This document shows, piece by piece, positions 5,743 to 59,123 of a DNA stretch of 64,000 bases. The stretch is from the NCBI GenBank assembly GCA_022072165.1, contig JAJVIF010000002.1, positions 176,221 through 240,220 on the forward strand. Reading direction: 5' to 3'. Each line of letters begins with the position of its first letter. The stretch's first letter is position 1. The translations under genes were made by a program, and so were the position numbers. Below the pieces are notes generated by a model. It was not told where the DNA came from. It did no database searches and saw only the letters and a list, made by a program, of their open reading frames with translations. The stretch comes from a bacterium (lineage in GTDB: Bacteria; JAJVIF01).

Positions 5743-5763
5743 CCGGGTAGACTCCCCCCTGCG

Positions 5764-14086: not shown

Positions 14087-14230
14087 GTTGCCTCCGAGTG
14101 GGGGGCACCGCGTGGTTCGCACACTCCCGGCACAGACCACTCAGTTTGCTTTTCGTCTAGGGACTGTCAAAACTATAGACCAATTTTCAGGTCGTTACAA
14201 CGTTTCCTCCACGCTCGAACGTCGGAGAAC

Positions 14231-19040: not shown

Positions 19041-19117
19041 TGGTCGCTCCTCGGATAGCGCTGACAGTCCCAACGTACGGTTGGGGAGTTACAGATGCGG
19101 GACGGCAGCATGTCGGG

Positions 19118-21853: not shown

Positions 21854-24520
21854 TTACTGATAGAGCGCGGCATCCAGTTCGAAGCCGGAGAAGAACGCCC
21901 CACCGTACTTCAGGGTCGACCAGACCGCCACATAGCGGCCATCGTGCAGCCCGGCGATCATCGCGGGATACCGAAAAGTTGAAAGTGTCGGCTCCACCAG
22001 ATGCGGTGTAAAACCGGAAATGGCAGCAGGGGTGTCAGTCTGACGGAAGCGCTTGCTGTTGAACGGCACATTGCTGTTCTGGTAAGTGACGGCGAAGGTG
22101 CCCCGGCCATCGTCATCGAAATTCAGGCTGAAGTAGGGCGTACTCCCCAGTCCACCGGGCAGGACGATGGTCATATCACTGTCCCAGGTGCCGCTGGAGT
22201 AGCGGGCCAGCCCGATGGGACTGCCCGTGCTGCCAGCGCGAGCGATGAGCCACAGCGTACCGTTGGGGGAGCGTTCGAGAATCGGATGACGGTACTGTCC
22301 GGCACTGGTGTAGAGATTCGCTTCTGCCTGCCAGACCCCACCAACAGTCTGCGCCCAGGAGAGCTTGCTCGGGCCGGTGTTCTGATCGGTGAAGCCATCG
22401 AAGGGGGTGACTACCTCGTCCCAGACTGCGACCCATTCATTCGTGGCGGTCGCGGCCAGCGTGGCACCGTAGCCATACATGTGTCCGGTGTTGCCACAGG
22501 TGGGAATGTTGACCACGATGTCACCCAGGCCGATGGTGCTCACGGAGCCCCAGGACCCGCTGGTTCGTTTTACGAACTGCAACTGCCACGGAATGGCCGG
22601 AGTTCCCGGACAACTGGGCTGCGTGGTCCGCAGGACTGTCAGGACCCCCAGCGTCCCATCCGGACTCGCCGCGATCGTCGAGCCGGTGAGCCTTTCGGTG
22701 TTGTTGGTATGGGTCATCACCACTTCCTGCGTGCCCCAGCCACCGGCGGTCCGGGGGCGATAGATCAGCTGATCGCGGCTGGAGCCATCCCGCTGGTTGA
22801 GCAGCGCATGGACGGTGTTGTCGCTGGTCGCGGCGAGGGAGAACTTCCGGGTGATCTGCTGCGAGGCGGGGGTCGTGAAGAAGTTCTCCGGGGCGGTCCA
22901 GCTGCCAGCGACATCGCAGGTGCTGGGGAGCTGCATGTACCAGTACTCAGTGGCGAATGGACTGGCACTCTGCACGATGCTGAAGACCAGATGCGCGGTG
23001 CCATCAGAAGTCACGACCAGGCTGTCCGGTGACTCGGTCAGCTCGCAGAGGACTTCCTGAATGCTGTTCGTCGTGAGTCGCAGCGGTGTCTGCCAGACCG
23101 GGGGTCCTGAAACTGACACCGGCCGCACCAGCGTATGGCTGTTGCCGAAACCGTCACTCACTCGCAGCGCGGTCTGGTAGTTCCCCGCTGCCGGGAACTC
23201 GTAGTCCACGGTGGAACCAGTCGCCATGACATCGAAAGTGGGATCGATGTAGTCGAAGTCCCACTCGTAGCTGACAATCGGATGCGTGCCGGGCGTGCTG
23301 AGGCTGCCATCGAAGTGGGTGTCGGTCTCGGCCTTAATGGAAAGGAAATTGCACGCGGTGAACTCTGCGGTCGGGGGCACCGCCGTGGCGCCGGCGACAC
23401 TCACCGGGAAACATTGCCAGGTGGAGTAGTTGGTAATGGTGACCGGCTCGAAGTCTTCGTTCAGCCCGACACCGCTGGTCGCCTGATCCGTCACACTCAC
23501 CAGCCCCCAGTAGTCGCCGGCGGTCACCGACGGGTCACAGAATGCCGAGATGGTGCCTGTGAGGGGGGTCGGGTCGGTCCCGGTCCCGGTCAGCGCCAGC
23601 GTCACCGGAGCAGCCATCACGCCCGGGATATCCAGGGTCGCGTCGATGACATCGCTCCCCAGCGACTCCCCATGCTTCCAGTCCCAGATGTCGACCTGGT
23701 AATCCGCGGAGGAGAGCTGCCCCGCCTCGAAAAAGTTGTTGAGTTCCGTGACTGCGATCTTCCAGGGGGCGTTGCCCGCGAACTTCGGCAATTCGTATTG
23801 CGGATTCTGACGGGTCGCCCGGACCGCGGACTGCCCGTAGTCGGCGGTGAGGTAGATCCGCAACTGGACAGAGGTCGCGGTGCCGAGATCAAGCGCGACC
23901 GTATCAACGCTGGTCATGCCGGGGAAAAAAACGTTGTATCCCGCAGGATTCAGGTGCGAGAACGCGCCGGCCGTGGGGTCTTCGCGGAGCACGACATAGG
24001 GCTGCACGACCGCCGCGCTGAACGCCGGCGAAGTGACCGCAGTCTCGGCCCAGAGGCGACCATAGCCATCGGCATTCGTGACCAGGCCGGGGGCCACCTG
24101 AACACCTCCCAGATTCGTGGCTGGCTGACTGCTCACCACCCAGCACTTGAGGTTGAAGATCGCGAGGTCCGGACGGGTGGCCGCACTAAAGGGATGTGTG
24201 GTCTCAAAATCGACTTCAATGGTGGTCGGCCCGGTCGAGCGAAGCCCCCGGACCCGGAAGTTTTTCCCGAAGCGTTCCTGCAACGCGGGTCCGAGTCCAA
24301 TCTCACTGAAGGTGTCGCCGATGGCAGCAGCGGTCGCATCTGGCAGGAGCGCGACTGTTCCAGCCTCCCGGTCGATGTCCAGCACGAATCCGCCAAGGAA
24401 GCCCCCTTCCATCGGCAATTGCAGCTGGGGCGCCCGCAAGGAGGATGTTGTCGGTGTCGACGCGGCACAGGCGGTGAGCGCCAGGGCCAACACGGGACTA
24501 CAGCGAAGCCAAGAGCGCAT
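21854..24520 (-). CDS. array paralog 3: lipoprotein, unassigned N-module + PKD-like + Asp-box-like propeller
   Basis: Trimmed to ATG 24520 (GGAGG upstream; MRSWLRCSPVLALALTA|C). Blocks TTHPFSAATRPDLAIFNLKCWVV, YLTADYGQSAVRATRQNPQYELPKFAGNAPWK, VDIWDWKHG and DYWGLVSVTD. PKD-like FDGSLSTPGTHPIVSYEWDFDY. Ends AALYQ. Confidence 0.85.
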   Translation of the reverse strand: MRSWLRCSPVLALALTACAASTPTTSSLRAPQLQLPMEGGFLGGFVLDIDREAGTVALLPDATAAAIGDTFSEIGLGPALQERFGKNFRVRGLRSTGPTTIEVDFETTHPFSAATRPDLAIFNLKCWVVSSQPATNLGGVQVAPGLVTNADGYGRLWAETAVTSPAFSAAVVQPYVVLREDPTAGAFSHLNPAGYNVFFPGMTSVDTVALDLGTATSVQLRIYLTADYGQSAVRATRQNPQYELPKFAGNAPWKIAVTELNNFFEAGQLSSADYQVDIWDWKHGESLGSDVIDATLDIPGVMAAPVTLALTGTGTDPTPLTGTISAFCDPSVTAGDYWGLVSVTDQATSGVGLNEDFEPVTITNYSTWQCFPVSVAGATAVPPTAEFTACNFLSIKAETDTHFDGSLSTPGTHPIVSYEWDFDYIDPTFDVMATGSTVDYEFPAAGNYQTALRVSDGFGNSHTLVRPVSVSGPPVWQTPLRLTTNSIQEVLCELTESPDSLVVTSDGTAHLVFSIVQSASPFATEYWYMQLPSTCDVAGSWTAPENFFTTPASQQITRKFSLAATSDNTVHALLNQRDGSSRDQLIYRPRTAGGWGTQEVVMTHTNNTERLTGSTIAASPDGTLGVLTVLRTTQPSCPGTPAIPWQLQFVKRTSGSWGSVSTIGLGDIVVNIPTCGNTGHMYGYGATLAATATNEWVAVWDEVVTPFDGFTDQNTGPSKLSWAQTVGGVWQAEANLYTSAGQYRHPILERSPNGTLWLIARAGSTGSPIGLARYSSGTWDSDMTIVLPGGLGSTPYFSLNFDDDGRGTFAVTYQNSNVPFNSKRFRQTDTPAAISGFTPHLVEPTLSTFRYPAMIAGLHDGRYVAVWSTLKYGGAFFSGFELDAALYQ

Positions 24521-24584
24521 GTGCGCCTCCTGCAGGGAGTGACATTGAGGACGTGAACCGGGGAACGGCGTCGGAACCCCAATG

Positions 24585-24618
24585 GTAACAAAACGAGCCG
24601 GGAAGTATCCCGGCTCGT
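24585..24618 (-). terminator. rho-independent terminator-like hairpin after array paralog 4
   Basis: Perfect 10-11 bp stem (CGAGCCGGGA / TCCCGGCTCG) with a 4-nt loop. On the minus strand it is followed by TTTTGTT. It lies about 25 nt past the stop codon at 24644. Confidence 0.65.
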
Positions 24619-24643
24619 GACTGCAGTTTGTCAGCAATTTGGG

Positions 24644-27283
24644 CTATTCCCAGAACAGGGCTTCCAGCTCCTGGCCTTCAGTAAACGCCCCGAAGCGGGT
24701 CGACTGGAACACCATCGCCCAGCGTCGATCCGCCAGACGGACTGTTACCGGGAAGCGCTGCAGGATCCCAGTCGCAGACGGCACCATCGTGGTGTTCGGC
24801 ATGGCTGCAATCGTAGCGATGGAGTCGGATTGCTGGAAGATCTTGCTGGTCATGGGCGTGCCGAAGTTTGAGCCGCCGGACATCAGCATCCCCTGCCCAT
24901 CCGGGGCGAAGGCCAGGTACGGCTGTGCGCTCCCGAGAATGCCAGTCAACGCGGTGGTGGAGGCGGTCCAGACAGTGCCGTCATAGGTCATCAGCCGGAT
25001 GTTGGTCAGGTCGCAGTGCGTCAGCCAGATGGTTCCATTCGGGCTGGTCGCCATGACGATCCGGAAGGAGTCAACCGGAACGCTGGTCAGAACGGACTCC
25101 GAACCCCAGACGCCCCCGGTGGTCCGGTTCCACTTGGTCATACAGGCACTGCTGACCGCGGAACCACCCAGGTGCGGGGTCTTGAGGGTATCCCAGGCCG
25201 TGATCCACTCGTTGGAGAGAGTCGAAGTCAGGGAGGCCGACAGGATGCGACCGCTCCAGCCTCCACCTCCGGACTGCGATGTCACATAAGACGTTGTGCC
25301 GATCAGTTCCTGCGGCTGCCAAACTCCCCCGACGGTCCGGATGGCATACATCTGCCCCGACACCGCCGGGATGCCGCCACCATTGACCGCAGCCGGGTCT
25401 TGTGGTGGCTGGAAGTGCGCGACATAGCCGAGTTCATCGGCATAGTTGCGGGCAATCCAGCCGTAGTTCCAGCCCCCGGTTCCGGGGGTGGAGGTGATGT
25501 TCACCGGGGCCGACCAGACGCCTCCGGTGTTGTGGATGTACCGGACGTTGTTCACACTCGCCAGGAACGACACATGGAGCCGGTCATCGCTGGTGATCGC
25601 CATCCCCACCGGGAAGACGCCACCACCGCCTGATGTGAAAATCTCGGTGGGAGCAGACCAGTCCGAGGAGCAGGGCGCGAGGGTCTGGTGGAAGATACTG
25701 TACGGCGACCCGGCGCGGTAATGAATCAGATGCGCGGTGCCGGTGCTGTCGATGCCAATCACCGGCGATGTCCGGGACTGATCTTCCCAGCGGTTCCAGT
25801 AGGTGTCGTTGGTGATCCGGATCGGCGTGGTGGACCAGGAGGGGGGGCCGGTGATCGCCAGCAGCGAGCTGGCGATGTCGAATCCCGCCGGACTCCCATC
25901 ACTCACCCGCAGCGCGACAGTGGGGGTCCCCACTGCACTGAACGACTGGGTCGCGATGACACCCGTGGCATCGACCGTGAAGTTGCTGCCGTCGTAATCC
26001 CAGTCCCATTCGTAAGAGACGATCGGATTGGTGCCCGGCACGCTGCTGGAGGCATCGAAAGTTTCGATGATGCCGATGGAGAGGTCTCCCCCCAAACAGC
26101 GAGTGAAAGCGGCGGTCGGCGGCTCGGCCACATCCTCCACCGACACATCAAAGACCTGATAGGTCACATAGCTGCCAAAGCTGACGGGCGTGGTGAGATT
26201 CTCTTCGAGCCCGACTCCTTGATTCGAGTCGGTGACCGTCACCAGCCCGAAGTAGTCCCCTTCACCGGCCGAGGCTCCATTCGTGATGAGGGTCGAGGCA
26301 GTGAGTGGGGTCGGGTCGCTGCCGGTTCCGCTGAGACTCAGGGTCACCGGCGCGGAGGTCACCCCCGGCACCTGCAGTGTGGCAGAAGCAACATCACTCC
26401 CGAGTCCCAGGCCATGTTTCCAGTCCCAGATGTCGACCTGGTACTGCGCGGTCGAACTCGGCTGCCCGGCCTGCAGATCATTCGCAAGTTCGGTCACCGC
26501 GACTTTCCACGCGGCATTGCCGGCGAACTTCGGCAGGTCGTACTGTGGATTCTGGCGAGTCGCCCGGACCGCTGACTGCCCATAGTCCGCCGTGAGATAG
26601 AGCCGCGCCTGGAACGTGTTGCCCGTGGAGAGGGTCAGCGCGAGGGTATCGATGCTGGTCTGGCCGGGGAAGAGGACGTTGAAGCCGGCGGGCGACTGAT
26701 AGTTAAACGGCGCGGATGAAGGGTCCTCCCGCAGGATCACATAGGGCTGGACCGGGGCGGCGGTGTAGTCCGGCTGGCTTCCTGGATGCGTCACGAGCCA
26801 GGTGTTGGAATACCCATCGGCGTTGGCCAGGACTCCGGGGGCGGCACTGACACCACTCAGATTCACCGGAGCCCGGTCTGTGACCACGAAGCACTTCACA
26901 TTGAAGATCCCCAGGTCCGGGCGATTCGCCGGGCTGAAGGGATGCGTGATTTGTACATCGACTTCGATGGTGTCCGGCGCGGGACGCCGGACCGCGATCA
27001 CTCTGAAGTTGTCGCCGAATGTTTTGTTGAACGCCGGGGTAAGTCCAAGTTCGCTGTAGTCATCGCCGATGGCGGCGGACTGACGTACGGGGGTGAGCTC
27101 GGCATGATTCGTCGTCAGATCGATCATCAGATCGGCGGCGAACAGCGGCCCGGTGGAAGGGTCCTGTGCCAGTGCCAGCGCTGCCGACTGCTCCTGGGCT
27201 GCCGGAGAAACCGGGGTCGCACTCCGCTGACAGGAAAGCAGGAAGAGGGCAGGCACCATGAGGGCCAGAGCTGGGGTACGCAT
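24644..27283 (-). CDS. array paralog 4: lipoprotein, unassigned N-module + PKD-like + Asp-box-like propeller
   Basis: ATG 27283 with AAGGAG upstream. Lipobox FLLS|C. Blocks ITHPFSPANRPDLGIFNVKCFVV, YLTADYGQSAVRATRQNPQYDLPKFAGNAAWK, VDIWDWKHG and DYFGLVTVTD. PKD-like FDASSSVPGTNPIVSYEWDWDYDGSNF. Strands GGVWSAP, GGVWQPQ, GGVWGSE and GTVWTAS. Ends ALFWE. Confidence 0.88.
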   Translation of the reverse strand: MRTPALALMVPALFLLSCQRSATPVSPAAQEQSAALALAQDPSTGPLFAADLMIDLTTNHAELTPVRQSAAIGDDYSELGLTPAFNKTFGDNFRVIAVRRPAPDTIEVDVQITHPFSPANRPDLGIFNVKCFVVTDRAPVNLSGVSAAPGVLANADGYSNTWLVTHPGSQPDYTAAPVQPYVILREDPSSAPFNYQSPAGFNVLFPGQTSIDTLALTLSTGNTFQARLYLTADYGQSAVRATRQNPQYDLPKFAGNAAWKVAVTELANDLQAGQPSSTAQYQVDIWDWKHGLGLGSDVASATLQVPGVTSAPVTLSLSGTGSDPTPLTASTLITNGASAGEGDYFGLVTVTDSNQGVGLEENLTTPVSFGSYVTYQVFDVSVEDVAEPPTAAFTRCLGGDLSIGIIETFDASSSVPGTNPIVSYEWDWDYDGSNFTVDATGVIATQSFSAVGTPTVALRVSDGSPAGFDIASSLLAITGPPSWSTTPIRITNDTYWNRWEDQSRTSPVIGIDSTGTAHLIHYRAGSPYSIFHQTLAPCSSDWSAPTEIFTSGGGGVFPVGMAITSDDRLHVSFLASVNNVRYIHNTGGVWSAPVNITSTPGTGGWNYGWIARNYADELGYVAHFQPPQDPAAVNGGGIPAVSGQMYAIRTVGGVWQPQELIGTTSYVTSQSGGGGWSGRILSASLTSTLSNEWITAWDTLKTPHLGGSAVSSACMTKWNRTTGGVWGSESVLTSVPVDSFRIVMATSPNGTIWLTHCDLTNIRLMTYDGTVWTASTTALTGILGSAQPYLAFAPDGQGMLMSGGSNFGTPMTSKIFQQSDSIATIAAMPNTTMVPSATGILQRFPVTVRLADRRWAMVFQSTRFGAFTEGQELEALFWE
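25876..27283. repeat. about 1.4 kb direct repeat, copy A (5' part of paralog 4)
   Basis: Aligns by eye, colinearly, with 28659..30066 at an offset of about 2783 nt. Even the antisense shadow ORFs are shared (MMRVEAVSGVGSLPVPLRLRVTGAEVTPGTC at 26283 and 29066). Boundaries are approximate. Confidence 0.8.
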
Positions 27284-27423: not shown

Positions 27424-30066
27424 TTACTGCCAGAACGAGCTTTCGAGCTCCATACCGCTCTGCCAGGCACCGTAGGTTTCGCCCTCCCAGAGGGTTACCC
27501 AGCGGCCATGACCGAGGGAACCGACCTGCGGGAAGAAGCGTCGCCCAGTCCCGGCGGCCAGGACTGTCAGGTCCGGCGAGGCGGCGATGGCGGCTGGTGT
27601 GTCGGTCTGGAGGAAGCGCTTTGCCCGGACCACCTGTCCGGTGGAAGCCACGGAACTGGTGACGAGCATCCCAGCTCCAGTCGCCTGATCAAAGGCAATC
27701 TGGAAATGCCCGGAGCCGCTCACCGAGTGAATCAGGGTCAGGGTCGGACTCCAGGCCGCGCCATCGTAGGTCGCCAACCGGACCTGAGCGGAGGTTTCTA
27801 CGCCCATGAACAGTGTCCCGCTCGGAGCGCGGCGCAGATGTGGCCGGTCATGCAACGACAGGGCGGTGTAGAGCGATGCCGGAGCCTGCCAGGTGCCGCT
27901 GTTAGTACGTGCCCACATGACATTGGAACTGGAAGAGACCGTACCCGCTCCCAGGAACGGATTCTTGAGGTTGGACCAGGCCGCGACCCAGTCGCTGCCG
28001 CTGGTCCCCTCGAGGGTCAGACTCGGGACAGACCCCTGTGAGTGATTGAGCTTGTGGTCCATCGCCCCGATCTGCTGGAGGGCGGTCCAGCTCCCAGAGA
28101 CATAGCGTGTGAAGTAAATCGGCGACGGGGGCTCGGGGATGCCATCCGTGGGGCCGCCACCACTGGCCGATGGCAACTCCCGCAACAGCGCGAAGCCCAG
28201 CTGCCCCGATCCATTCACCGCCAGATTGGGGGTAGACCAGTACCCCGGTCCAACGTTGGTCGTAATCGGCACCATGGCCGACCAGGTCCCATTGGTCTCC
28301 CGGGCCATCCACCCCTGCTCGGTGCCGTTGTAGGTCCCGGTCACATGCAGGCGATCATCGGGTCCGATGGCGAGACTGATGGGAACCCAGAGCTGATTCC
28401 CGATCGTGTGAATCTGCTGAGCCGCGGTCCAGGTGCTGGTGCAGGGGTCCAGGGACTGGTAGTACATGGTGAAATCGTAGAGCGGTGCGACACTGCCGTA
28501 GTCGTAGTAGACGATGTGCACCACGTTATTGGAGTCGGTCACCATCCCGTTCCCGATTTCGCTGTAGTCCCCGAACTGATCCCAGAAGCTGTTGTTGGTG
28601 ACCCGCATCGGCGTCCGCCAGGAGGCAGTCGGATTGATCGCCATGATGGTCGTGGCGATGTCCCAGCCGGTAGGCGTGCCATCACTGACCCGGAGTGCGA
28701 CGGTCGGCGTTCCTGCGGCGCTGAACGGATGGGTCGCGGTGATACCCATGGCATCGACCGTGAAGTTGCTGCCGTCGTAATCCCAGTCCCATTCGTAGCT
28801 CGTGATGGCGTTGGTGCCAGGTGTGCTGCCTGACGCATCGAACGTCTCCCCGATGCCCGTCCCCAGGTCCCCGCCGATGCAGCGCGTGATCGCGGCGGTC
28901 GGCGGCACGCCGACAACTTCCACTGCGACAGGAAAGACCTGATAGGTCACATAGCTGCCGAAACTGACGGGCGTGGTGAGATTCTCTTCGAGCCCGACTC
29001 CCTGATTCGAGTCGGTGACGGTCACCAGCCCCCAATAATCGCCTTCACTGGACGAGGCTCCATTCGTGATGAGGGTCGAAGCGGTCAGCGGGGTCGGGTC
29101 ACTCCCGGTCCCGCTGAGACTCAGGGTCACCGGCGCGGAGGTCACGCCCGGGACCTGCAGAGTGGCGGATGCGACATCGCTCCCGAGGCCCTGCCCATGC
29201 TTCCAGTCCCAGATGTCCACCTGGTACTGCGCGGTGGAGGCAGGCTGCCCGGCCTGCAGGTCGTTCGCAAGCTCGGTCACCGCGACCTTCCATGCGGCGT
29301 TGCCGGCGAACTTCGGCAGGTCGTACTGCGGCGTCTGACGAGTCGCCCGGACCGCAGACTGCCCATAGTCCGCCGTCAGATAGAGCCGCGCCTGGAAGGT
29401 ATTGCCCGTGGTGAGGGTCAGTGCGAGGGTGTCGATGCTGGTCTGGCCGGGGAAGAGGACATTGAAGCCAGCGGGCGACTGATAGCTAAACGGAGCGGAG
29501 GAGGGGTCTTCCCGCAGGATCACATAGGGCTGAACCGGGGCGGCGGTGAACTCCGGCTGGCTCCCGGGATGGGTCGCGAGCCAGGTGTTGGAGTACCCAT
29601 CGACATTGGCCAAAACGCCCGGTGCAATGCTGACGCCACTGAGATTCGCAGGTGTCCGGTCAGTCACCACGAAGCACTTCACATTGAAGATCCCCAGGTC
29701 CGGGCGACTCGCCGGACTGAAGGGATGCGTAATCTGCACATCGACTTCGATCGTGCCTGGCGCGGGGCGTCGGACCGCCACGACCCTGAAGTTGTTGCCG
29801 AAGGTTTTGGTGAACGCCGGAGTCAATCCAAGCTCGCTGTAGTCATCGCCAATGGCGGCGGACTGACGTACCGGGGTCAGTTCGGCGTGATTCGTCGTCA
29901 GGTCGATCATCAGATCGGCGGCGAACAGCGGCCCGGTCGCCGGATCCTGCGCCAGCGTCGGAGCTGCTGATTGCTCCTGGGCTGCCGGAGCAACCGGTGT
30001 CGCGCTTCGCTGACAGGAGAGCAGAAAGAGTCCGGGCAGTAGCAATGCCAGCGAGAGGATGCGCAT
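27424..30066 (-). CDS. array paralog 5: lipoprotein, unassigned N-module + PKD-like + Asp-box-like propeller
   Basis: Trimmed to ATG 30066 (MRILSLALLLPGLFLLS|C). The N-terminal 470 aa or so are nearly identical to paralog 4, and the C-terminal half is diverged. Strands NGTWSAM, SGSWTAL, SGTWQAP and GAAWSPT. Ends SSFWQ. Confidence 0.87.
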   Translation of the reverse strand: MRILSLALLLPGLFLLSCQRSATPVAPAAQEQSAAPTLAQDPATGPLFAADLMIDLTTNHAELTPVRQSAAIGDDYSELGLTPAFTKTFGNNFRVVAVRRPAPGTIEVDVQITHPFSPASRPDLGIFNVKCFVVTDRTPANLSGVSIAPGVLANVDGYSNTWLATHPGSQPEFTAAPVQPYVILREDPSSAPFSYQSPAGFNVLFPGQTSIDTLALTLTTGNTFQARLYLTADYGQSAVRATRQTPQYDLPKFAGNAAWKVAVTELANDLQAGQPASTAQYQVDIWDWKHGQGLGSDVASATLQVPGVTSAPVTLSLSGTGSDPTPLTASTLITNGASSSEGDYWGLVTVTDSNQGVGLEENLTTPVSFGSYVTYQVFPVAVEVVGVPPTAAITRCIGGDLGTGIGETFDASGSTPGTNAITSYEWDWDYDGSNFTVDAMGITATHPFSAAGTPTVALRVSDGTPTGWDIATTIMAINPTASWRTPMRVTNNSFWDQFGDYSEIGNGMVTDSNNVVHIVYYDYGSVAPLYDFTMYYQSLDPCTSTWTAAQQIHTIGNQLWVPISLAIGPDDRLHVTGTYNGTEQGWMARETNGTWSAMVPITTNVGPGYWSTPNLAVNGSGQLGFALLRELPSASGGGPTDGIPEPPSPIYFTRYVSGSWTALQQIGAMDHKLNHSQGSVPSLTLEGTSGSDWVAAWSNLKNPFLGAGTVSSSSNVMWARTNSGTWQAPASLYTALSLHDRPHLRRAPSGTLFMGVETSAQVRLATYDGAAWSPTLTLIHSVSGSGHFQIAFDQATGAGMLVTSSVASTGQVVRAKRFLQTDTPAAIAASPDLTVLAAGTGRRFFPQVGSLGHGRWVTLWEGETYGAWQSGMELESSFWQ
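28659..30066. repeat. about 1.4 kb direct repeat, copy B (5' part of paralog 5)
   Basis: See copy A. Similarity decays just after the PKD-like domain and within the signal-peptide codons. Confidence 0.8.
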
Positions 30067-30152
30067 GAAGCCTGGGCCTCGTGGAGGGGCAGATATGCAG
30101 TGCACTCAGTGTACGTCTGAACCGTGCCGGAACTGACCCTCCAGGATGAGAA

Positions 30153-36196: not shown

Positions 36197-38803
36197 ATGA
36201 CTCACCATCCCGCCCCTGTGGCCTGGCGCACCCTCTGTTTCCTGGCCTTGCTCCTCCCCGCCTGCCAGCGTCTGGCCACCACGCCCACACCGACCGCGAC
36301 ACCACCAGTCGCCTCAGCCACGCTTCCCGGAGGGGAGGCCGCAGGCGGGGAACGTCCGCTGCAGGTCCTGCGGGTGGTGCTCCATCCTGAGAGCGGGCTG
36401 GTCGATGTGGAGCCCCTGCGTCAGGGACAGGCCGGTCTGCAGGATGTGCTGGAGACGGTCGATGTCACGCAATACTTCACCAATGCTCCTTGTACGAGCT
36501 GCCTGAAGATTGTGGGAGTCGGGACCAGTGTCGCAGGACGTCCCACCCTCGCCGTCCAGGTCCGGCATCCGTTCACGAGTCCGGCCCCCGGCACGCAGCA
36601 GCGACAGGACCTCGCGGTCTTCAATGTGGAAGCGGTGGTCCGCTTTGATGAAACAGAGCAAAGCCTCACCAGCTTTCCTGGCACCGGCGTCTCGGCGGTC
36701 ACGAGCACCCGCCTGGTGAACGCCGATGGCTATACGGGCAATCTGGATGCGGCCTACGATGAAGATTACCGCCCGACAGTCGCGACGATTCATCCCTACC
36801 GGCTCTTTTTCCGCGACTACTCCCGGGGGACATTTGATGCGGCGAGTCCCCAGGGGTTTCCAGACTACAGCGACATCCGGGGCTTCCTGGCGATGGGCCA
36901 GGGCCAGGGTCCGGATGAACAGCTGTTCGAGTTTCAGGTCCCCGCTGGCGGCGGTCCCATCCGCTTTGATCTGGTGCTGCAGGCGAGCTTCGGTGTGGCC
37001 TCGGCCAATGTTGGTGAACGGGCCGCACCGGAGTATCGCCTTCCGCAGTACAACAAAAAGGCGGCGAGCGAAGTCCGGGTCGGGCTGTCGGATATCGTGC
37101 CGGGGAATCTGAGTGGACGCGGCCTGCTATCGGGGATCGGGACCAGCGGGGCGCAGGTCCGGCTGTCGGTCCTCGACATCACCGATGCCTCGACCGGGGT
37201 CACTGTCGGGCCAGACCTGGACCAGCTCCGGGCGGTCTCGGATGTCGCGCAACTGCGGATTGAGATTCCGGGCGTCCTCAACAGCGCGATCACTATCAAC
37301 AATCCGGCGTCGGTCTTCGAGGGGGGCACGGGCGATGATCCGGTGCAGCCGCTGACCTACGGTGTCGGGATCACTAACCAGGCTGCCGCAACCCAGGGGA
37401 CCTACTTTGGGGTGGTCCGGGTCGGCGATTCCTACCCGGTTGGAGGGAACACGGTCCTGCCGCAGGATGCCCATCGCAAAGGGGTCGTGCCGGGCTTCAC
37501 CGATCCCTTCCCCCTGGCTGAAGTAGCGACCTATCAGGTCTTTGAGGTTCCGGTCAAGGCCAACACCATTACGCGCTTTGAGGATGCGTCGGCGGGCGAC
37601 GCCCTGGGCACGAGTCTGGCCTATGGCGACTTCAACGGCGATGGACTGCTGGATCTTGCCGTGGGGGCTTTCGAGGCGGATCCAGGGGGTGTCAGCAATG
37701 GCGGGCAGGTCCGGGTCTACTACCAGCTCCCCAACGGCTTTTTGCCCGTCCCGGTGGTGCTGCAGGAAGCGACGCCGGTGCTGAACAACCGCCTCGGATT
37801 CTGCGTCGCTGCCGGGGATGTCACGGGTGACGGCAAAGATGATCTCCTCGCGAGCGCCATCAACGGCAACATCCCGGGACGAGTCGCGGTCTTCCGGTCA
37901 CAGGGGATCGGCTTCCTGCCGCCCCTGACAGTCCAGGATCTCTCCCTGCCGGTCAACAGTCGCTTCGGCTGGACAATCACCCTGGCGGACATCAATGGCG
38001 ATGGACGTCAGGATGCCTACATCGGCGCGCCGGAAGCCCTGGGGAGCTTTTTGCGGGAGGGGCTGGTCTATCGCTACCTGGGAGGTCCCGGCGGGATTTC
38101 CACGCCGCAGACTCTTTCAACTCCGGATCCGCAGCTGGATGCGTACTTTGGCTCCAGCATCGCGGTCCTCAGGGAGCCCTCCGGGACCCCCTCACATCTC
38201 GCCATCGGAATGCCGGGATACAACAGTGCCACCGGACGGGTCTATGTTTATCCCATTAACGCTGGCGGGACGCTTGGGACGGCGGTGGTGGTGAATCCGA
38301 CCAGCGGTGGTCCGAACGACGCCTACGGTTACAGCCTCGCGACGGCCGACTTTACGCAGGATGGCCGGATGGACCTCGTGGTCGGTGCACCAGGATCGGC
38401 GAGCACCATGACAGGACGGGTCGATCTGGAAGTGCACCTGCCAGGCGGGAGCTTTGTCCGGGGGGCGACGCTCACCGCGACTGGCGCGGACACCTTCACC
38501 TTCGGCTCGTCGCTCGCCATCGGCGACTTCGACTTCGATGCTCGCATGGACATAGCGGCGGGCGGAATCATGCTCGAAGCGAGCGGGGTCCCGGCTTCCG
38601 GTCGAGTCGCGGTCTTCCCCGGGGGACGGAGCCTCGGCGGGAATGCCCTGGAGTTCCACGCCCCGATTGTCTCCACCGATCAGCTCTTCGCCCGATCGCT
38701 GCTGGGCTTCCCACAACCGGGGAAGGCGGACCTGCTGCTCGTGGGAGCCCCCGGCGATGATCCGGGAGGGGCGACCAACGCCGGCAGTGTGTATCTGTAT
38801 TAG
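36197..38803 (+). CDS. lipoprotein: same unassigned N-module fused to FG-GAP/VCBS repeats
   Basis: ATG 36197 with GGAGG 10 nt upstream. Lipobox LLLPA|C. N-module blocks VRHPFTSP..QDLAVFNVEAVV, NADGYTG, IHPYRLFFRD, LVLQASFG, PEYRLPQYN, SDVAQLRIEIPGV and GTYFGVVRVGD. C-terminal FG-GAP repeats YGDFNGDGLLDLAVGA, AGDVTGDGKDDLLASA, LADINGDGRQDAYIGAP, TADFTQDGRMDLVVGAP and IGDFDFDARMDIAAGG. Confidence 0.88.
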   Translation: MTHHPAPVAWRTLCFLALLLPACQRLATTPTPTATPPVASATLPGGEAAGGERPLQVLRVVLHPESGLVDVEPLRQGQAGLQDVLETVDVTQYFTNAPCTSCLKIVGVGTSVAGRPTLAVQVRHPFTSPAPGTQQRQDLAVFNVEAVVRFDETEQSLTSFPGTGVSAVTSTRLVNADGYTGNLDAAYDEDYRPTVATIHPYRLFFRDYSRGTFDAASPQGFPDYSDIRGFLAMGQGQGPDEQLFEFQVPAGGGPIRFDLVLQASFGVASANVGERAAPEYRLPQYNKKAASEVRVGLSDIVPGNLSGRGLLSGIGTSGAQVRLSVLDITDASTGVTVGPDLDQLRAVSDVAQLRIEIPGVLNSAITINNPASVFEGGTGDDPVQPLTYGVGITNQAAATQGTYFGVVRVGDSYPVGGNTVLPQDAHRKGVVPGFTDPFPLAEVATYQVFEVPVKANTITRFEDASAGDALGTSLAYGDFNGDGLLDLAVGAFEADPGGVSNGGQVRVYYQLPNGFLPVPVVLQEATPVLNNRLGFCVAAGDVTGDGKDDLLASAINGNIPGRVAVFRSQGIGFLPPLTVQDLSLPVNSRFGWTITLADINGDGRQDAYIGAPEALGSFLREGLVYRYLGGPGGISTPQTLSTPDPQLDAYFGSSIAVLREPSGTPSHLAIGMPGYNSATGRVYVYPINAGGTLGTAVVVNPTSGGPNDAYGYSLATADFTQDGRMDLVVGAPGSASTMTGRVDLEVHLPGGSFVRGATLTATGADTFTFGSSLAIGDFDFDARMDIAAGGIMLEASGVPASGRVAVFPGGRSLGGNALEFHAPIVSTDQLFARSLLGFPQPGKADLLLVGAPGDDPGGATNAGSVYLY

Positions 38804-38901
38804 AAGTCACGGGTTTGTCATCGAAGGGGGGCGAGGCTTGTGATACTTTTCACAAGCGTCCGGGCCACCAGGCCCCCACTCTCGCTGGTCAGGAGCCAGA
38901 C

Positions 38902-40065
38902 ATGCTGAACTTCACCCTCGGCGATGAACACCAGATGATTGTGGAGATGGTGCGCGGCTTTGCCGAGGAGGTCCTGGGACCCGGCGCGGAGCATCGTGAT
39001 CGCCACAAGGAGTACCCCACAGCAGAACTGGCACAGGCGGCGGATCTCGGACTCCTGGGAGCCACGATCCCCGAAGAGTGGGGCGGCGCGGGGATGGATG
39101 CGATTTCCTATCTCCTGATCAATCGCGAGATCTCCCGCCGGGATGCCGCCTTCTGCACCATCATGGGGGGCAACGTGTCGCTCTTCTGCGAGGGGCTGCG
39201 GCTCTTCGGGACCGACGCGCAAAAGGAAGAGTGGCTGAAGCCCTGTGCCTCCGGCCAGATGATCGGCGCGTTCGCGACCACTGAGCCGCACATGGGGTCC
39301 GACCTCGCGGGCATGAAGGCGACCTATCGGCCATCCGACAAGGGCTGGGTCCTCAATGGCCAGAAGGCGTACATCACCAACGCGAAACATGGCAAGGTCA
39401 TGCTGGTCTTCGCCTCGAAAGACCTGAGCCTGCGGCATAAGGGGCTCTCCTGCTTCATCGTCCCCACCGATGCCCCCGGGGTGGAAGTCTCGGAGCCCTA
39501 CGACAAAATGGGTATCCGCTCCTCCGATACCTGCGATGTCTATCTGACAGACTGTGAAGTCCCCGCGGCTGCGCTGCTCGGCGGTACGGAAGGGGAAGGC
39601 TTTAAGCAGGCGATTGCAATTCTGTCGGGGGGGCGGGGCGCGATCGCCGGCCAGGCCTGGGGGATCGCGCAGGCCGCGTTTGAGGCAGCGGTGCAGTACG
39701 CCCAGGAGCGCGAGACCTTCGGTCAGCCGATCTATAAGCACCAGACCATCGCGAACTACCTTGCGGACATGCAGGTCGAGCTGACCAACACTGAACTCAT
39801 CTCCCTGCGGGCTGCCTGGCTTAAGGCGAACGGCCAGGACTACTACCAGGCTGCGAGCATGGCGAAACTCTACGCGTCCGAAGCCGCCTGCCGGATCTGC
39901 GATCTGGCGCTGCAGATTCATGGGGGCTATGGCTACGTCAAGGAATACCCGGTGGAGCGGTACTACCGCGATGCCCGGGTCATCCGGGTGTATGAGGGGA
40001 CCAGCGAGATTCAGCGGTCCATCATCGCCGGCGAAGTAATCAAGCAGCACCCCATCGGCGGGTAG
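38902..40065 (+). CDS. acyl-CoA dehydrogenase
   Basis: Trimmed to ATG 38902 (AGGAG upstream). Short/medium-chain ACAD-like sequence throughout (TEPHMGSDLAGMK, GGYGYVKEYPVERYYRDARVIRVYEGTSEIQR). Confidence 0.92.
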   Translation: MLNFTLGDEHQMIVEMVRGFAEEVLGPGAEHRDRHKEYPTAELAQAADLGLLGATIPEEWGGAGMDAISYLLINREISRRDAAFCTIMGGNVSLFCEGLRLFGTDAQKEEWLKPCASGQMIGAFATTEPHMGSDLAGMKATYRPSDKGWVLNGQKAYITNAKHGKVMLVFASKDLSLRHKGLSCFIVPTDAPGVEVSEPYDKMGIRSSDTCDVYLTDCEVPAAALLGGTEGEGFKQAIAILSGGRGAIAGQAWGIAQAAFEAAVQYAQERETFGQPIYKHQTIANYLADMQVELTNTELISLRAAWLKANGQDYYQAASMAKLYASEAACRICDLALQIHGGYGYVKEYPVERYYRDARVIRVYEGTSEIQRSIIAGEVIKQHPIGG

Positions 40066-46650: not shown

Positions 46651-47223
46651 TTACTCCGCTGGTGGCGGGGCATCGAAGTCGGCGAAGGGGTCTGGTTCTG
46701 CGTCAGGTCCATCACCGAAATCCTCGTCCAGGCCTCCGGAGAGCCCTTCTTCCTCGGTCACTTCCCCCTTTTCGGTGATCCGATAGGCGGGCATGTTGAC
46801 ATCCGGAAACTCGATGGATGCCTGCGAGTTGGGAAACGCCAGGAGGATGTAATGCTCGGGCCCGGCGTGGAGTTCGAGGTCGTAGTACCGCACGAACGCC
46901 ACCCCGCTGGGGTCATCCTCGCGGGCGCTGTAACCTGCGGGAATGGAACCATCGGCCACCAGTTCTTCAAAGGTGGCATAGCGACCAAAGCGCTGGTGAT
47001 AGGCCAGCTGCATCATGTGAATCTGCTTCAGCGAATGAATGGTGGTGGCATTCCCGAAGCTGGGATTGGTCACGGAGGCGGAACCCTGTCCCGGATTCAG
47101 CCCCTTTGTTGCTGACTGCATCGATTGCAACTGGAAGACGACCAGGATGCCAATGATGGCGACACTGATCAGGATGCTGATCATCGAGAAGCCGCGCTGC
47201 CGCTGTCCCAGTTTCTGCCTCAT
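46651..47223 (-). CDS. prepilin-type N-terminal domain protein (pseudopilin-like, atypical)
   Basis: AGGAGG 7 nt upstream. N-terminus QRG|FSMISILISVAIIGILV resembles a prepilin cleavage/methylation site but has Ser where the usual Glu+5 would be. Acidic C-terminal tail. Confidence 0.5.
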   Translation of the reverse strand: MRQKLGQRQRGFSMISILISVAIIGILVVFQLQSMQSATKGLNPGQGSASVTNPSFGNATTIHSLKQIHMMQLAYHQRFGRYATFEELVADGSIPAGYSAREDDPSGVAFVRYYDLELHAGPEHYILLAFPNSQASIEFPDVNMPAYRITEKGEVTEEEGLSGGLDEDFGDGPDAEPDPFADFDAPPPAE

Positions 47224-47244: not shown

Positions 47245-49932
47245 TTAGCTTGTCAGCATACGGGACCGGAAGAGTTCCAGGGCGTCCGGAATCTGTGACC
47301 CGTCCTTACCCCCGCCCTGTGCCATGTCCGGACGTCCGCCGCCCCCGGCTCCCAGGAGCTTGCCGACCTCGCCGATCAGCTTGCCTGCCTGATGCCCCGC
47401 AGCGATGACATCCTCTGAGAGGGCCACCAGGGTGTTGTACTTGCCTTCCTCGCCGCCGATCAGCAGGATGGCGCAGCTGGCCTCCCGGTCGCGGATCGCC
47501 TGCGCGATGGTCCGGAGGGTCTCGGCACTCGCTCCCTCGATCTGTGATGCGAGGACCAGGGTCTGGTCGCGACGGTTCCCCTTCGCGATGAGGTCACCGA
47601 CCTGGCTCAGCGCCAGTTGTTCCTTGAGCGTCGCCAGCTCCGTCCGGAGAGCTTTGGATTCTTCCCGGAGGCGATCCAGGCCCCCCAGGAGATCCTCGAG
47701 GGTCCGCTTCGCTTTGAGTTCGCCGGCGAGCCGCGCCACCATCGCTTCCTGTTCGAAGAGATACTCCATCGCCCGCATACCGGTGTAGCCCGTGACCCGC
47801 CGGGTCCCCGCCGCGATGGATTCTTCCCGCACGAGGACAAATGCCCCCGCCTCCGCTGTATGGTCCAGATGGGTGCCACCGCAGAGTTCCAGCGACACCG
47901 GTCCCATGCGCAGGACCCGCACCTGGTCGCCATACTTTTCCCCGAAGAGGGCAACTGCCCCCATCGCCCGGGCATCGGCGATGGGCATCTCCATTTTTTC
48001 GACCGGGAAGTCCGCCAGGATCCACTCATTGACGAGCGCATCGACCTGGGCGATCTGTTTTGCGGTCATCGCCTCGAAGTGCTTGAAGTCGAAGCGGACC
48101 CTGTCCGGCTCCACCAGCGACCCCGCCTGCTCCACATGCTCCCCCAGGACCTGCTTCAAAGCGCTGTGCAAAAGATGCGCGGTGGAGTGCGCCCGCATGG
48201 TGGGGGTCCGACGCTGCGTGTCAATCTCGGCCCGGACCGGTGTCTCCGGCTCCAGCGCTTCGGTGGCGCCGCTGACCAGTTTGCACCGATGCAGGAACAC
48301 GCCGCCGGGGGTTTTCTGCGTATCGAGGACCTCCAGCACGAAGCGTCCGTCCATGGCGGAGATAGTGCCGCGATCGCCAATCTGCCCCCCAGACTCGGCA
48401 TAGAAAGGCGTCTGCTCCAGTGCCACCAAAACTTCGGCCTCACCAGCACTGATAGCCCCCAGCAGGAGGGTGTCGCCGCTGGTTGCGCCGGAGTAGCCCA
48501 GGAACAGTGTCGGAGGGAACTGGTCGAAGGCCTGCATGATCGAGGCGGCATCGCTGCCGGACCCTATCGCGCCGAGCTTGGCTTTGGTATCGGCCTTGGA
48601 GCGGGCGCGCTGTTCTGCCAGGGCAGCCTGAAACGCCGCCTCATCGACCGTCATACCGTGGTCTTCCACCAGGTCTTTGGTGAGATCCAGCGGGAAGCCA
48701 TAGGTGTCGAAGAGGGTAAAGGCCTTGTCGCCGGGGAAGGTCGCAGGGAGAGTTCCGGCATTGGACGTTTGCAGATCTTCCAGTTCCCGGGCTAGCAGGG
48801 TCTCCCCGCGATGCAGGGTGCGGAGGAAGAGTTCTTCTTCGGTCGCAATGCGATCCGCGATGAAGGCTCCCTTCTGTACGATCTCGGGATACTGGGTCCC
48901 CATGAGGTCGCGCAGGATCGGCAATGCCCCGGCCCAGACTCCGGGTCCGAAGCCGAGGCGATTCCCCCAACTCATGGCGCGACGCATGATGCGGCGCAGG
49001 ACATACCCCCGTCCTACGCGATCCGGCAGGACCCCGTCCGCCATCAGGAACGCGGTCGCCCGGAGATGGTCCGCCAGGACGTAGTAAGGATTGACCCGGG
49101 CTCCTGCTAGCTGGTTTTTGGTTTCGGTCTTGAAGTAGCCAATCAGCGGCTGGAATCCGTCGGTCTCAAAGACCGTGTCCTTTTGCTGCATCACCACACA
49201 CATCCGCTCCAGCCCGGCGCCGGTGTCGACATTCTTCTTCGGCAGTTCCACCAGGGAGCCATCCGCCTGCCGATCAAACTGGGTGAAGACCAGGTTCCAG
49301 ATTTCGATCCAGCGGCCATAGGCCGACCCGGGACCGTCATACTCCCCGTTGGTGGAGCCGAAGCGGGGACCGAGGTCGTAGAAGATTTCGGTATCCGGAC
49401 CACAGGGGCCGGTCTCTGCCATCACCCAAAAGTTGTCTTCATCGCCAAGGCGGACAATCTTCGATTCGGGCAGGCCGACTTTGCTCCGCCAGAGGTCGTA
49501 GGCCTCCTGATCGTTTTCATGCACCGAGACCATGAGCTTCTCGGTGGGGATGCCCAGGACTTCGGTCAGGAAGGTCCAGGCCCAGGGGATGATCTCCGCC
49601 TTGAAGTAGTCCCCGATGCTGAAGTTCCCCAGCATTTCGAAGAAGGTGCAGTGCCGGGGAGTCCGTCCCACCTGCTCGATGTCGAGGGTCCGGATGCACT
49701 TCTGGATACTCACCATGCGTGGCGATGGTGGAGTTTCCTGGCCGGTGAAGTACTTCTTCAGGGGCGTCATGCCGGCATTGATCAGCAGGATGGTCGGATC
49801 ATCGAAGGGGACCAGGGGCGCGGAGGCCAGGATGTGATGCTCCGAGCCGGGGAGGTCGCGGAAGTTCTCGAGGAAGAGGGTCCGGATTTCCTGGGCGGAC
49901 CGGACCGGCATCTGGGTGGTGGAAGTGGCCAT
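47245..49932 (-). CDS. alaS: alanine--tRNA ligase
   Basis: Track ORF starts at TTG 49971; the first ATG is at 49932. Canonical AlaRS sequence (EIRTLFLENF, FEMLGNFS, editing-domain HSTAHLL, C-terminal DHHA1 GGGGRPDMAQGGG). Confidence 0.95.
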   Translation of the reverse strand: MATSTTQMPVRSAQEIRTLFLENFRDLPGSEHHILASAPLVPFDDPTILLINAGMTPLKKYFTGQETPPSPRMVSIQKCIRTLDIEQVGRTPRHCTFFEMLGNFSIGDYFKAEIIPWAWTFLTEVLGIPTEKLMVSVHENDQEAYDLWRSKVGLPESKIVRLGDEDNFWVMAETGPCGPDTEIFYDLGPRFGSTNGEYDGPGSAYGRWIEIWNLVFTQFDRQADGSLVELPKKNVDTGAGLERMCVVMQQKDTVFETDGFQPLIGYFKTETKNQLAGARVNPYYVLADHLRATAFLMADGVLPDRVGRGYVLRRIMRRAMSWGNRLGFGPGVWAGALPILRDLMGTQYPEIVQKGAFIADRIATEEELFLRTLHRGETLLARELEDLQTSNAGTLPATFPGDKAFTLFDTYGFPLDLTKDLVEDHGMTVDEAAFQAALAEQRARSKADTKAKLGAIGSGSDAASIMQAFDQFPPTLFLGYSGATSGDTLLLGAISAGEAEVLVALEQTPFYAESGGQIGDRGTISAMDGRFVLEVLDTQKTPGGVFLHRCKLVSGATEALEPETPVRAEIDTQRRTPTMRAHSTAHLLHSALKQVLGEHVEQAGSLVEPDRVRFDFKHFEAMTAKQIAQVDALVNEWILADFPVEKMEMPIADARAMGAVALFGEKYGDQVRVLRMGPVSLELCGGTHLDHTAEAGAFVLVREESIAAGTRRVTGYTGMRAMEYLFEQEAMVARLAGELKAKRTLEDLLGGLDRLREESKALRTELATLKEQLALSQVGDLIAKGNRRDQTLVLASQIEGASAETLRTIAQAIRDREASCAILLIGGEEGKYNTLVALSEDVIAAGHQAGKLIGEVGKLLGAGGGGRPDMAQGGGKDGSQIPDALELFRSRMLTS

Positions 49933-50040
49933 GAGACTCGCGCAAGGCTCCTTGAGGACCGGGCATGACAACGCCCTCCGCCAGTACCGGAGGGCGTCAG
50001 TGATTCTACCAGTCCTGCCGGTGCCGGTTAGCCGGTGATG

Positions 50041-55560: not shown

Positions 55561-55709
55561 CATCGGCATGATGGGAACCCGGTGTGAATCCGGGACGGAC
55601 GAGCCGCTGTAAGCGGGGAGTCGGCAGCCACGATGCCAGTGTGTCCGGACAGGACATGCGAAGGCGGCTGACCGATGGTGATCCGCGAGTCAGAAGACCG
55701 ATGCCGATG
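55561..55709 (+). promoter_or_regulatory. cobalamin (B12) riboswitch aptamer
   Basis: 9-bp P1 helix CATCGGCAT (55561-69) / ATGCCGATG (55701-09). Conserved core GGGAACCCGGTGTGAATCCGGGAC..GAGCCGCTGTAAGCGGGGA. CCAGTG..GCGAAGGC element. B12 box AGTCAGAAGACC (55688-99). A possible TTGCCC-18-TATCCT promoter lies just upstream. The regulated ATG is at 55774. Confidence 0.85.
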
Positions 55710-55773
55710 CCATTGCCGACCTTTTCTGCCGTCGTACGGTCTCGACTTGCCGTACAGAAAGGCGCTCCCGCCC

Positions 55774-57996: not shown

Positions 57997-59123
57997 TCCG
58001 CACCGGTCTGTTCACCACAGGAGTGTTGTTCATCGCCGGGTGTGCCGTCGGCAACAGCGGCATCGGACCAGCCACACCATCGGGCGAGTTGCCGGCGGTG
58101 CCGCAGGGCGGGACTGTGCTCATTGCCAACAGCCTGAGCGAAACGCTCTCTCGTCTGGACCTCACCACGACGCCTGCCCGGATGGAACCGCAGGTAGCGC
58201 TGACGGGTCAAGCGCCGAACGCGCTGCTGCTTTATGGGTCAGAGATTCTGGTGGTGAATTCGCTGTCGAACTCCGTGCAGCTACTCGATCGTCAGACGCT
58301 CTCGCAGGTGGCGGAGTACAGCCTCGGGAGTCGCACGAATCCCTGGGACGCCGTCATCGTGGGCGACACCGCCTGGGTCTCCTGCTGGGTGAGCCAGGAA
58401 GTCGTTGGGCTGGACCTCACCGATGGCACGATCCACCAGCGGATTGCGGCACCCACCAGCGACGGGTTGCCTCATGTGCCGGGAGTCACGACCCGGGCGT
58501 ATCCGCAGGGGATGGCGCAGGACCTGAACGAGTCGCGGATCTACGTGGCGTTGCCGAATCTGAACGCTCAATTTTTGCCGGCGGGTGCGGGAGTCCTCTG
58601 GACCCTGACCCGGGATGGTGACTCTTTTCAGTCCGATGGCATCACGGTGCTGGAGCCTGCGGCGAACGCGGCCGATGTCACGGTGAGCAACATCGGGGGG
58701 CGTCCGGCGGTCATCGTGGCCTGCGCTGGCGACTTTGAGTCGGGGACTGGCTATCGGGAAAACGGCACCCTGACCTGGCTCGATGGCGTGACCTTGCAAG
58801 TGCGCGAGCACAGGCTGGTGGAGAGCGCACCGGTCCGGGTGACCGCTCGTGGCCCCTGGGCGTATGCGCCAGGAGCGCAGACAGGAGATGTGGTCGCGCT
58901 GGAGTTTGGGGCCACTGCTGCCCCGGTGCGCATCACCCTCCCGGACGCGGGGGCGGGGCAGAACTACGCTTCCGCCGTGGCCTTTGGCGATGACACGACC
59001 CTGCTTGCGTTGCAGTTCAACAGCGATCGCCTGTATGCCATCGATGTGCGGACCTGGACGGTCAGTGGTGGCGTGACGACCGGCGATGGTCCGGTCGCTC
59101 TGCTGGTGCTCCCCCGGGAGTGA
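57993..59123 (+). CDS. lipoprotein, YVTN/YncE-like seven-bladed beta-propeller
   Basis: ATGA overlap with the upstream gene. Lipobox FIAG|C. About seven periodic strands (VLIANSLSETLSRLDL, ILVVNSLSNSVQLLD, AWVSCWVSQEVVGLDL, IYVALPN, AVIVACAGDF, DVVALEF, LLALQFNSDRLYAIDV). Confidence 0.8.
   Translation: MIRTGLFTTGVLFIAGCAVGNSGIGPATPSGELPAVPQGGTVLIANSLSETLSRLDLTTTPARMEPQVALTGQAPNALLLYGSEILVVNSLSNSVQLLDRQTLSQVAEYSLGSRTNPWDAVIVGDTAWVSCWVSQEVVGLDLTDGTIHQRIAAPTSDGLPHVPGVTTRAYPQGMAQDLNESRIYVALPNLNAQFLPAGAGVLWTLTRDGDSFQSDGITVLEPAANAADVTVSNIGGRPAVIVACAGDFESGTGYRENGTLTWLDGVTLQVREHRLVESAPVRVTARGPWAYAPGAQTGDVVALEFGATAAPVRITLPDAGAGQNYASAVAFGDDTTLLALQFNSDRLYAIDVRTWTVSGGVTTGDGPVALLVLPRE

Follow-up and report, generated by a model that had tools for sequence, protein, structure and literature searches.

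In integrin alpha subunits an N-terminal propeller is followed by the thigh and calf domains and by a C-terminal transmembrane helix. In Bacteroidota surface lipoproteins (of the BACON and SusE/F-type Ig kinds) an N-terminal beta-sandwich placed after the lipidated cysteine holds variable binding or catalytic domains off the membrane, and the sandwich domains in question, with lengths of about 80-100 residues, are covered by Pfam families. The UmbA paralogs of the Streptomyces umbrella toxin particles combine a conserved docking domain with divergent distal beta-propeller lectins (PMC11062931), and polymorphic toxins, as outlined in PMC3482391, join conserved N-terminal regions to diverse C-terminal toxin domains by recombination. 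The subject of the present analysis is a protein module (the N-module) that occurs seven times in a 64,000-nucleotide stretch of bacterial DNA (contig JAJVIF010000002.1, positions 176,221 to 240,220; hereafter the window): once in gene X, which encodes a predicted lipoprotein of 868 amino acids (aa) ending in an FG-GAP propeller, five times in an array of paralogs (B-F) and once in gene H. Judged from profile searches, alignments and structure prediction, the module is a specific unit of about 400 residues in two parts that travels as one piece, and it constitutes a previously undescribed domain family realising a known design principle; literature searches returned no description of the family.

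The family shares with UmbA the design of a constant docking part with a variable propeller head. The constant part of UmbA, however, has a trypsin-like fold and is a component of a secreted toxin particle, whereas here an unrelated beta module is carried by a predicted lipoprotein, and the surroundings of X contain neither toxin nor particle components. With polymorphic toxins, as far as the above outline describes them, the family has in common the logic of constant N-termini and variable C-termini, often in gene arrays. Its C-termini are, however, propellers, beta-helices, PKD domains and enzymes instead of toxins; immunity genes, orphan C-terminal cassettes and recurrent small neighbouring genes were not seen at the family loci, and the family does not appear to be a polymorphic toxin system. 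Compared to the BACON and SusE/F-type domains, the module is about 400 residues long, consists of two sub-domains and has no Pfam or NCBIfam model.

Within the window, BLASTP aligns X with the array paralogs B-F at E-values of 1e-11 to 3e-26 over about 340-445 residues (26-31% identity), and with H (55675..57996) at 6e-22. A profile built from the B-F modules alone, with E-values scaled to a database of 1.8 billion sequences, gives X 84.6 bits (E 5.7e-19) and H 82.6 bits, compared to at most 5.1 bits for 500 shuffled versions of X. The first-pass annotation had proposed, from motifs aligned by eye, that the N-terminal part of X is colinear with that of the array proteins; all nine motifs listed are found in X in the order given, and the similarity is clearly significant both pairwise and against the profile. 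A six-frame scan of the window with a hidden Markov model (HMM) finds exactly seven modules, one each in X, the five array paralogs and H. Between their C-terminal halves BLASTP finds no significant similarity (all E >1), which agrees with the earlier proposal that one module is combined with three unrelated C-termini within 64 kb. As for the C-terminal domain of the array, a putative Asp-box propeller in the earlier reading, its matches to PKD in Pfam remain below threshold and its profile has no sequence match in the PDB.

The family extends far beyond the window. An exhaustive HMMER search of 1.84 billion representatives, counted as clusters at 50% identity, retrieved 1,112 clusters at E<=1e-3, of which 697 reach E<=1e-10 and 434 reach E<=1e-30. 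Among the 150 matches listed, the whole 390-position profile is nearly always covered, and the module lies at about residues 55-455 of proteins of 750-1,200 aa; shorter or split matches mostly represent truncated proteins. A word-indexed homolog search recovered few relatives (10 with alignment A1 and 4 with A3). All family members derive from metagenomes or metagenome-assembled genomes (MAGs), and their source names are mostly 'hypothetical protein' or absent, as are the names obtained in cluster look-ups ('hypothetical protein'); a few NCBI records are named after the C-terminal domain alone (FG-GAP, 'integrin alpha', PKD). A single peptide pattern taken from alignment A2 matched two of 185,579 species representatives, a lower bound on the number of such genomes, with at least 13 and at least 19 loci, and an HMM scan of the loci of these two MAGs revealed about 50 module genes, many of which are arranged in tandem. 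Paralog clustering is also present in a third metagenome, where a JGI 3300056594 contig (L003 338..6377) carries a second module gene (3690..6377, minus strand, 895 aa) about 1 kb from the family member P0005. An apparent stand-alone module in the CBDURE MAG (L031 2930..5876) was rejected, as it is a frameshifted full-length gene split into open reading frames (ORFs) at 2930..4243 and 4215..5876. Another ORF of 511 aa (L034 486..2021) stops about 70 residues past the module; it may represent a short form that occurs naturally.

The conservation is concentrated in a limited number of positions. In 50 diverse full-length members the invariant residues are (in X numbering) M1, H124, P125, R136, D138, G178, P200, P278, P283, D327, S348, G401 and D411, mostly Gly and Pro with a few polar residues, and the cysteines of a CxxC loop (C99, C102) are more than 90% conserved. 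This loop and the motifs RHPF, R-x-DL, NADGY and HPY characterize the first sub-domain (D1), while the second (D2) is marked by S-D-V, G-T-G and G-x-Y-x-G-x-V-x-V-x-D. The module of X is 37-43% identical to members of other architecture from outside the window (P0003-P0010), and 25-33% identical to the other six modules of the window (25-30% for B-F and 27% for H in the same comparison). B-F and H lack the CxxC, and in B-F the His residues of DLH and HPY are missing as well; because of these losses X is, on the alignments, nearer to the canonical form of the family than the array is.

A structure prediction from a 41-sequence alignment yields the module as a confident stand-alone, all-beta unit (AlphaFold predicted local distance difference test, pLDDT, 85; predicted template modelling score, pTM, 0.89); a model from a 17-sequence alignment (pLDDT 54) was set aside in its favour. 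The layout is that of a beta-rich D1 (X residues ~53-277, with strands in model residues 7-215, corresponding to X 56-264), the conserved connector PEYRLPQYNKKAASE and a beta-sandwich D2 (~292-455), the latter with pLDDT mostly above 90. Neither Pfam-A 2025 nor NCBIfam 20.0 matches the module in X, B, C, E or H at E<=0.1, and the 25 commonest of the 37 Pfam families found on 50 family members all leave the module uncovered. Sequence and profile searches of the PDB with the module gave matches at noise level at most. With Foldseek no whole-module neighbour was found in the PDB or BFVD and no match exceeded a TMq of 0.23; the best PDB match had an E-value of 6e-3, and the single BFVD match below 1e-3 had a TMq of 0.11.

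These results bear directly on the reading that the shared region is a generic Ig or beta-sandwich spacer, or a likeness due to chance or composition, which had been named as an outcome that would undo the original proposal. The G-x-Y...V-x-V-x-D motif of D2 is indeed PKD/cadherin-like and typical of PKD, cadherin and Ig sandwiches, the sole outside sequence match of D2 is a marginal one to a protocadherin (E 0.006 over 50 columns), and the best partial Foldseek alignments (120-170 columns) are to small Ig-like sandwiches. Against this stand the gap between X and its shuffled versions, the 390-position profile that is matched as a whole in nearly all full-length top matches, and the lack of any Pfam Ig, PKD or Big family on the module. 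Moreover, hhalign of D2 against the PKD domains of the family itself gives a probability of 2% (E 0.024, 18 columns), and comparisons of D1 with PKD and of D1 with D2 were negative. By profile comparison D2 would thus not be classed as a PKD or Ig-like domain, and the reading as a generic spacer is regarded as refuted, with hardly any credibility left to it. The positions of the sub-domains and of the seven modules are collected in Table 1.

Table 1. Predicted features of gene X and positions of the N-modules in the window (residue numbers refer to X).
Feature	Position	Strand	Basis
Gene X, predicted lipoprotein: N-module and seven-blade FG-GAP propeller	36197..38803	+	ORF listing, GGAGG, Pfam
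X, signal peptide and lipobox, residues 1-23 (LLPA before C23)	36197..36265	+	read from sequence
X, tether, Pro/Thr/Ala/Gly-rich, residues 24-52	36266..36352	+	composition; unconserved in alignments A1, A4
X, N-module D1, beta-rich, residues 53-291, including the PEYRLPQYNKKAASE connector	36353..37069	+	alignments A2-A4, AlphaFold
X, N-module D2, beta-sandwich, residues 292-457	37070..37567	+	AlphaFold model 243-405 = X 292-454
X, seven-blade FG-GAP (integrin-alpha-type) beta-propeller, residues 458-868	37568..38800	+	Pfam, blade motifs, PDB search
N-module of array paralog B (gene 16350..19073)	17868..18902	-	BLASTP, HMM scan
N-module of array paralog C (gene 19118..21796)	20633..21667	-	BLASTP, HMM scan
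N-module of array paralog D (gene 21854..24637)	23378..24418	-	BLASTP, HMM scan
N-module of array paralog E (gene 24644..27283)	26126..27160	-	BLASTP, HMM scan
N-module of array paralog F (gene 27424..30105)	28909..29943	-	BLASTP, HMM scan
N-module of H (gene 55675/55774..57996)	55906..57018	+	BLASTP, HMM scan

The C-terminal regions attached to the module are exceedingly diverse. BLAST separates those of 147 members into at least 40 groups without similarity to one another, and Pfam recognizes PKD in 20 of 50 representatives, along with LVIVD, PQQ, beta-helix, BNR, Kelch, SBBP, FG-GAP, GDSL lipase, Sde0182_C and cytochrome c7/c3 domains. Similarity between C-termini is undetectable in 79% of the pairs whose modules are 60-70% identical, and still in six of the 17 pairs with modules 80-90% identical. 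In a tandem array of another genome, on CBDURE010000011.1, adjacent genes with modules 81-89% identical carry PKD plus PQQ, PKD plus beta-helix, beta-helix/NosD or PQQ. In windows of 40 residues the identity there stays at 85-92% along the module and drops to 10-20% immediately past its end; in one pair, where PKD is absent from one partner, it returns to 80-95% in the beta-helix. The converse case also occurs: the modules of two genes are just 69% identical although their C-termini are homologous throughout. A conserved module joined to unrelated C-termini in this manner goes beyond what divergence alone produces, and the comparisons therefore indicate that recombination at the module boundary is required.

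Two further mosaic patterns are seen within the array of the window itself. E and F are 80-97% identical over residues ~48-467, a stretch that takes in both the mature module and the PKD part; their remaining C-terminal residues show 27-37% identity. Very recent gene conversion between E and F was considered as the cause of this step and ruled out, because third-codon-position identity at conserved residues is just 0.59-0.79 in the N-terminal part (mostly 0.47-0.63 in the C-terminal part); the step is rather read as an old mosaic and/or as the outcome of selection that differs greatly between the N- and C-terminal halves. In C and F, whose modules are otherwise 42-72% identical, a stretch of about 80 residues (~residues 240-320) reaches 90-95% identity, which suggests a gene-conversion patch within the array.

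The architecture of X is itself old. Its nearest relatives (P0001, P0002 and P0066) have both the module and the FG-GAP part in common with it, and identity to the full-length P0066 is a uniform 52-87% past the signal peptide and tether. The neighbourhood is likewise shared, P0066 being preceded by an ECF (extracytoplasmic function) sigma factor and two ABC-2 permeases and followed by an acyl-CoA dehydrogenase. On the JGI 3300020195 contig in question an AAA_15/AAA_21 ATPase and DUF4276 pair (L038 6903..8764) lies between P0066 and the dehydrogenase, unlike the window, where 38803..38902 holds no such AAA_15/DUF4276 insertion. The architecture is thus kept in at least four organisms, with synteny of the neighbourhood taken from the contig of one relative (P0066). 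Similarly, H has a relative (P0123) that resembles it in the module as well as in the C-terminal part. Since the other six modules show just 25-33% identity to that of X, and since the syntenic ortholog of X is uniformly similar to it, X is on this evidence a stable, single-copy, integrin-like member of the family and no recent chimera. The modules of the three architectures in the window likewise show 25-33% mutual identity, and these architectures are best described as old, separately inherited lineages of one family. The portability of the module, as first proposed, is therefore upheld by the many C-terminal families and by modules 81-89% identical with unrelated ends, while the notion that it was grafted onto a propeller in X, in the sense of a recent event, is contradicted by the syntenic ortholog.

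The C-terminal half of X had been taken to contain at least five FG-GAP repeats, and by inspection it contains seven blades of about 60 residues with F/Y-G...G-A-P units (residues 465-868), a number sufficient for a closed propeller. Pfam FG-GAP (PF01839) matches in six stretches at E 1.3e-34 (118 bits, cut-off 22.1), FG-GAP_3 (PF13517, the former VCBS model) at 5e-22 (78.7 bits, cut-off 26.9) and FG-GAP_2 (PF14312) at the extreme C-terminus at 1e-5 (26 bits, cut-off 23). The strict loop pattern D-x-[DNT]-x-D-[GA]...D is matched in four blades, and a fifth loop of the same kind can be read in blade 2 (AGDVTGDGKDD). A sequence search of the PDB retrieved integrin alpha-IIb, alpha-5 and alpha-V at E-values of 2e-11 to 1e-8, with alignments covering the blades of X with these calcium-binding loops. 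By these matches X has a bona fide FG-GAP propeller as its C-terminal half, and this probably binds Ca2+. X resembles integrin alpha in this propeller with D-x-D/N-x-D-G loops and in the logic of an anchor, beta-sandwich legs and a distal propeller. However, the order is reversed, the anchor being a predicted N-terminal lipid instead of a C-terminal helix, and D1 and D2, which form the legs, show no sequence relationship to the thigh and calf domains; no beta-subunit partner is known. As a whole protein X would not qualify as an integrin alpha subunit, and the NCBI label 'integrin alpha' on P0002 reflects the propeller alone.

The N-terminus of X reads MTHHPAPVAWRTLCFLALLLPA followed by the lipobox cysteine and a Pro/Thr/Ala-rich stretch, and a GGAGG lies about 10 nucleotides (nt) upstream of the ATG. 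The lipobox (LLPAC, with C23) noted in the first reading of the 868-aa protein is present, although the Pro at position -2 is atypical. The lipoboxes of the X-type relatives are AAGC, VAGC and AVSC, those of the six paralogs in the window are TSC, LGC, TAC, LSC, LSC and MSC, and a lipobox-like Cys at residues 10-45, typically ...GCS, was found by regular expression in 109 of 134 full-length Met-starting members. X has what defines a bacterial lipoprotein, a predicted signal peptide ending in a lipobox Cys, and is accordingly taken as a candidate for lipidation and for an envelope location. The tether residues included in the AlphaFold model (50-55) have pLDDT below 50. Upstream of X are two divergently oriented ABC-2 (ATP-binding cassette) permease genes and the ECF sigma factor, and downstream the acyl-CoA dehydrogenase gene; none of these flanking genes has an obvious functional tie to X. 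An independent Logan contig carries the gene in the same context, and a scan around X revealed no promoter or terminator.

X may be pictured as a lipid-anchored modular cell-envelope protein, in which a lipoprotein signal peptide, some 30 residues of flexible tether, D1 plus D2 and the propeller would follow one another. From this design and from the scaffold-like conservation, it appears probable, though with considerable reserve, that the module stays constant as a stalk or docking unit close to the membrane, on which exchangeable heads are presented, much as the first-pass annotation had suggested. Its docking target would be shared by all paralogs, for instance an envelope component or an export partner, and the C-terminal domains (propellers, beta-helices, GDSL lipase, multihaem cytochromes) would be the distal heads that bind or catalyse. 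For X this head would be the integrin-alpha-like propeller, giving the chain order anchor, legs, propeller. Three observations weigh against such a role. No conserved partner gene stands beside the family members across 36 loci, where a TolC-like/ABC group occurs in some and nothing consistently; the lipobox of X is atypical, as noted above; and the invariant H124, R136 and D138 of D1 might, together with the near-invariant CxxC, form a ligand, metal or catalytic site.

The last of these observations leads to the main rival, namely that the work is done by the N-module, which would be an enzyme or would bind a conserved substrate or metal as a receptor, and that the C-termini merely direct it to different substrates or surfaces; the first-pass annotation had allowed for this as the converse reading. 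Besides the three invariant residues and the CxxC in most of the family, D1 has further conserved His, Asn and Lys residues, and the constraint on the module is much stronger than that on the C-termini. However, the CxxC (in B-F and H) and the His of DLH and HPY (in B-F) are replaced in otherwise intact genes, the majority of the invariant residues are Gly or Pro, and the module has no sequence or fold likeness to any enzyme in Pfam, NCBIfam, the PDB or Foldseek searches. Some of the C-termini are moreover themselves enzymes or redox proteins (GDSL lipase, cytochrome c7), as would fit heads that do the work. A scaffold is preferred over an enzyme because the invariants are mostly Gly and Pro and because the CxxC and two of the three conserved His are dispensable in B-F and H, and a working-part function is considered unlikely.

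The position of the module, constant right after the lipobox and tether in most Met-starting members, would also suit an export or sorting domain read by a lineage-specific machine that delivers lipoproteins to the surface. That the family is greatly expanded in a small number of deep uncultured lineages (two MAGs have 13 and 19 loci) fits such a role, as does a TolC-like outer-membrane protein in related MAGs, which points to a diderm envelope. Yet 400 residues of well-folded beta structure would make a large sorting signal, the 36 loci revealed no transporter gene conserved next to the family members, and the idea overlaps with the docking version of the stalk explanation. As a separate function, sorting is judged quite improbable.

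Returning to the stalk or docking role, a bolder and rather doubtful extension of it is that the module marks a previously unrecognised, lineage-limited envelope display system, in which a D1 of new fold docks and swapped heads generate a combinatorial surface repertoire. The dock would be kept near-constant across dozens of paralogs per genome by purifying selection and gene conversion, and recombination exactly at the module end would exchange the heads. The family comprises more than 1,000 well-conserved clusters, and yet it is absent from Pfam and NCBIfam and has no neighbour among solved or viral predicted structures. It is among the most expanded families in some deep-branching uncultured bacteria (at least 13 and at least 19 loci; seven genes in 64 kb), and probably accounts for much of how these bacteria interact with their surroundings. 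The sharp recombination boundary is a natural experiment in shuffling that defines the limits of the domain, and if the module is a true display scaffold, it could be used in protein engineering to carry chosen domains on the cell surface.

Some neighbouring genes deserve mention. Beside the array lies a gene (11474..14140, minus strand) for a predicted secreted protein or lipoprotein of 888 aa with He_PIG Ig-like domains; the six-frame scan detected no N-module in it, and it shows no similarity to the array C-termini. Residues ~548-700 of H match the NCBIfam model of the LIC_13355 lipoprotein at E 1e-17 with 64 bits, below the cut-off of 120. A predicted lipoprotein of 376 aa (…FIAGC…) without a Pfam match is encoded at 57993..59123 (plus strand), and since its start precedes the stop of H by 4 nt, it is probably co-transcribed with H.

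With regard to lineage, the alanyl-tRNA synthetase encoded in the window (47245..49971, minus strand) has JGI metagenome matches at 96% and 83% identity and all others at 48% or less, its nearest named relatives being Firmicutes at 44-45%. Because its matches past the two close metagenome relatives do not exceed 48%, the window is assigned by this marker to a deep uncultured bacterial lineage. The related MAGs encode a TolC-like protein, which suggests that they have a diderm envelope. Finally, a protein of 190 aa encoded at 46651..47223 (minus strand) has a prepilin-like N-terminus (…RGFSMISILISVAIIGILV…), suggesting a type IV pilin or pseudopilin.

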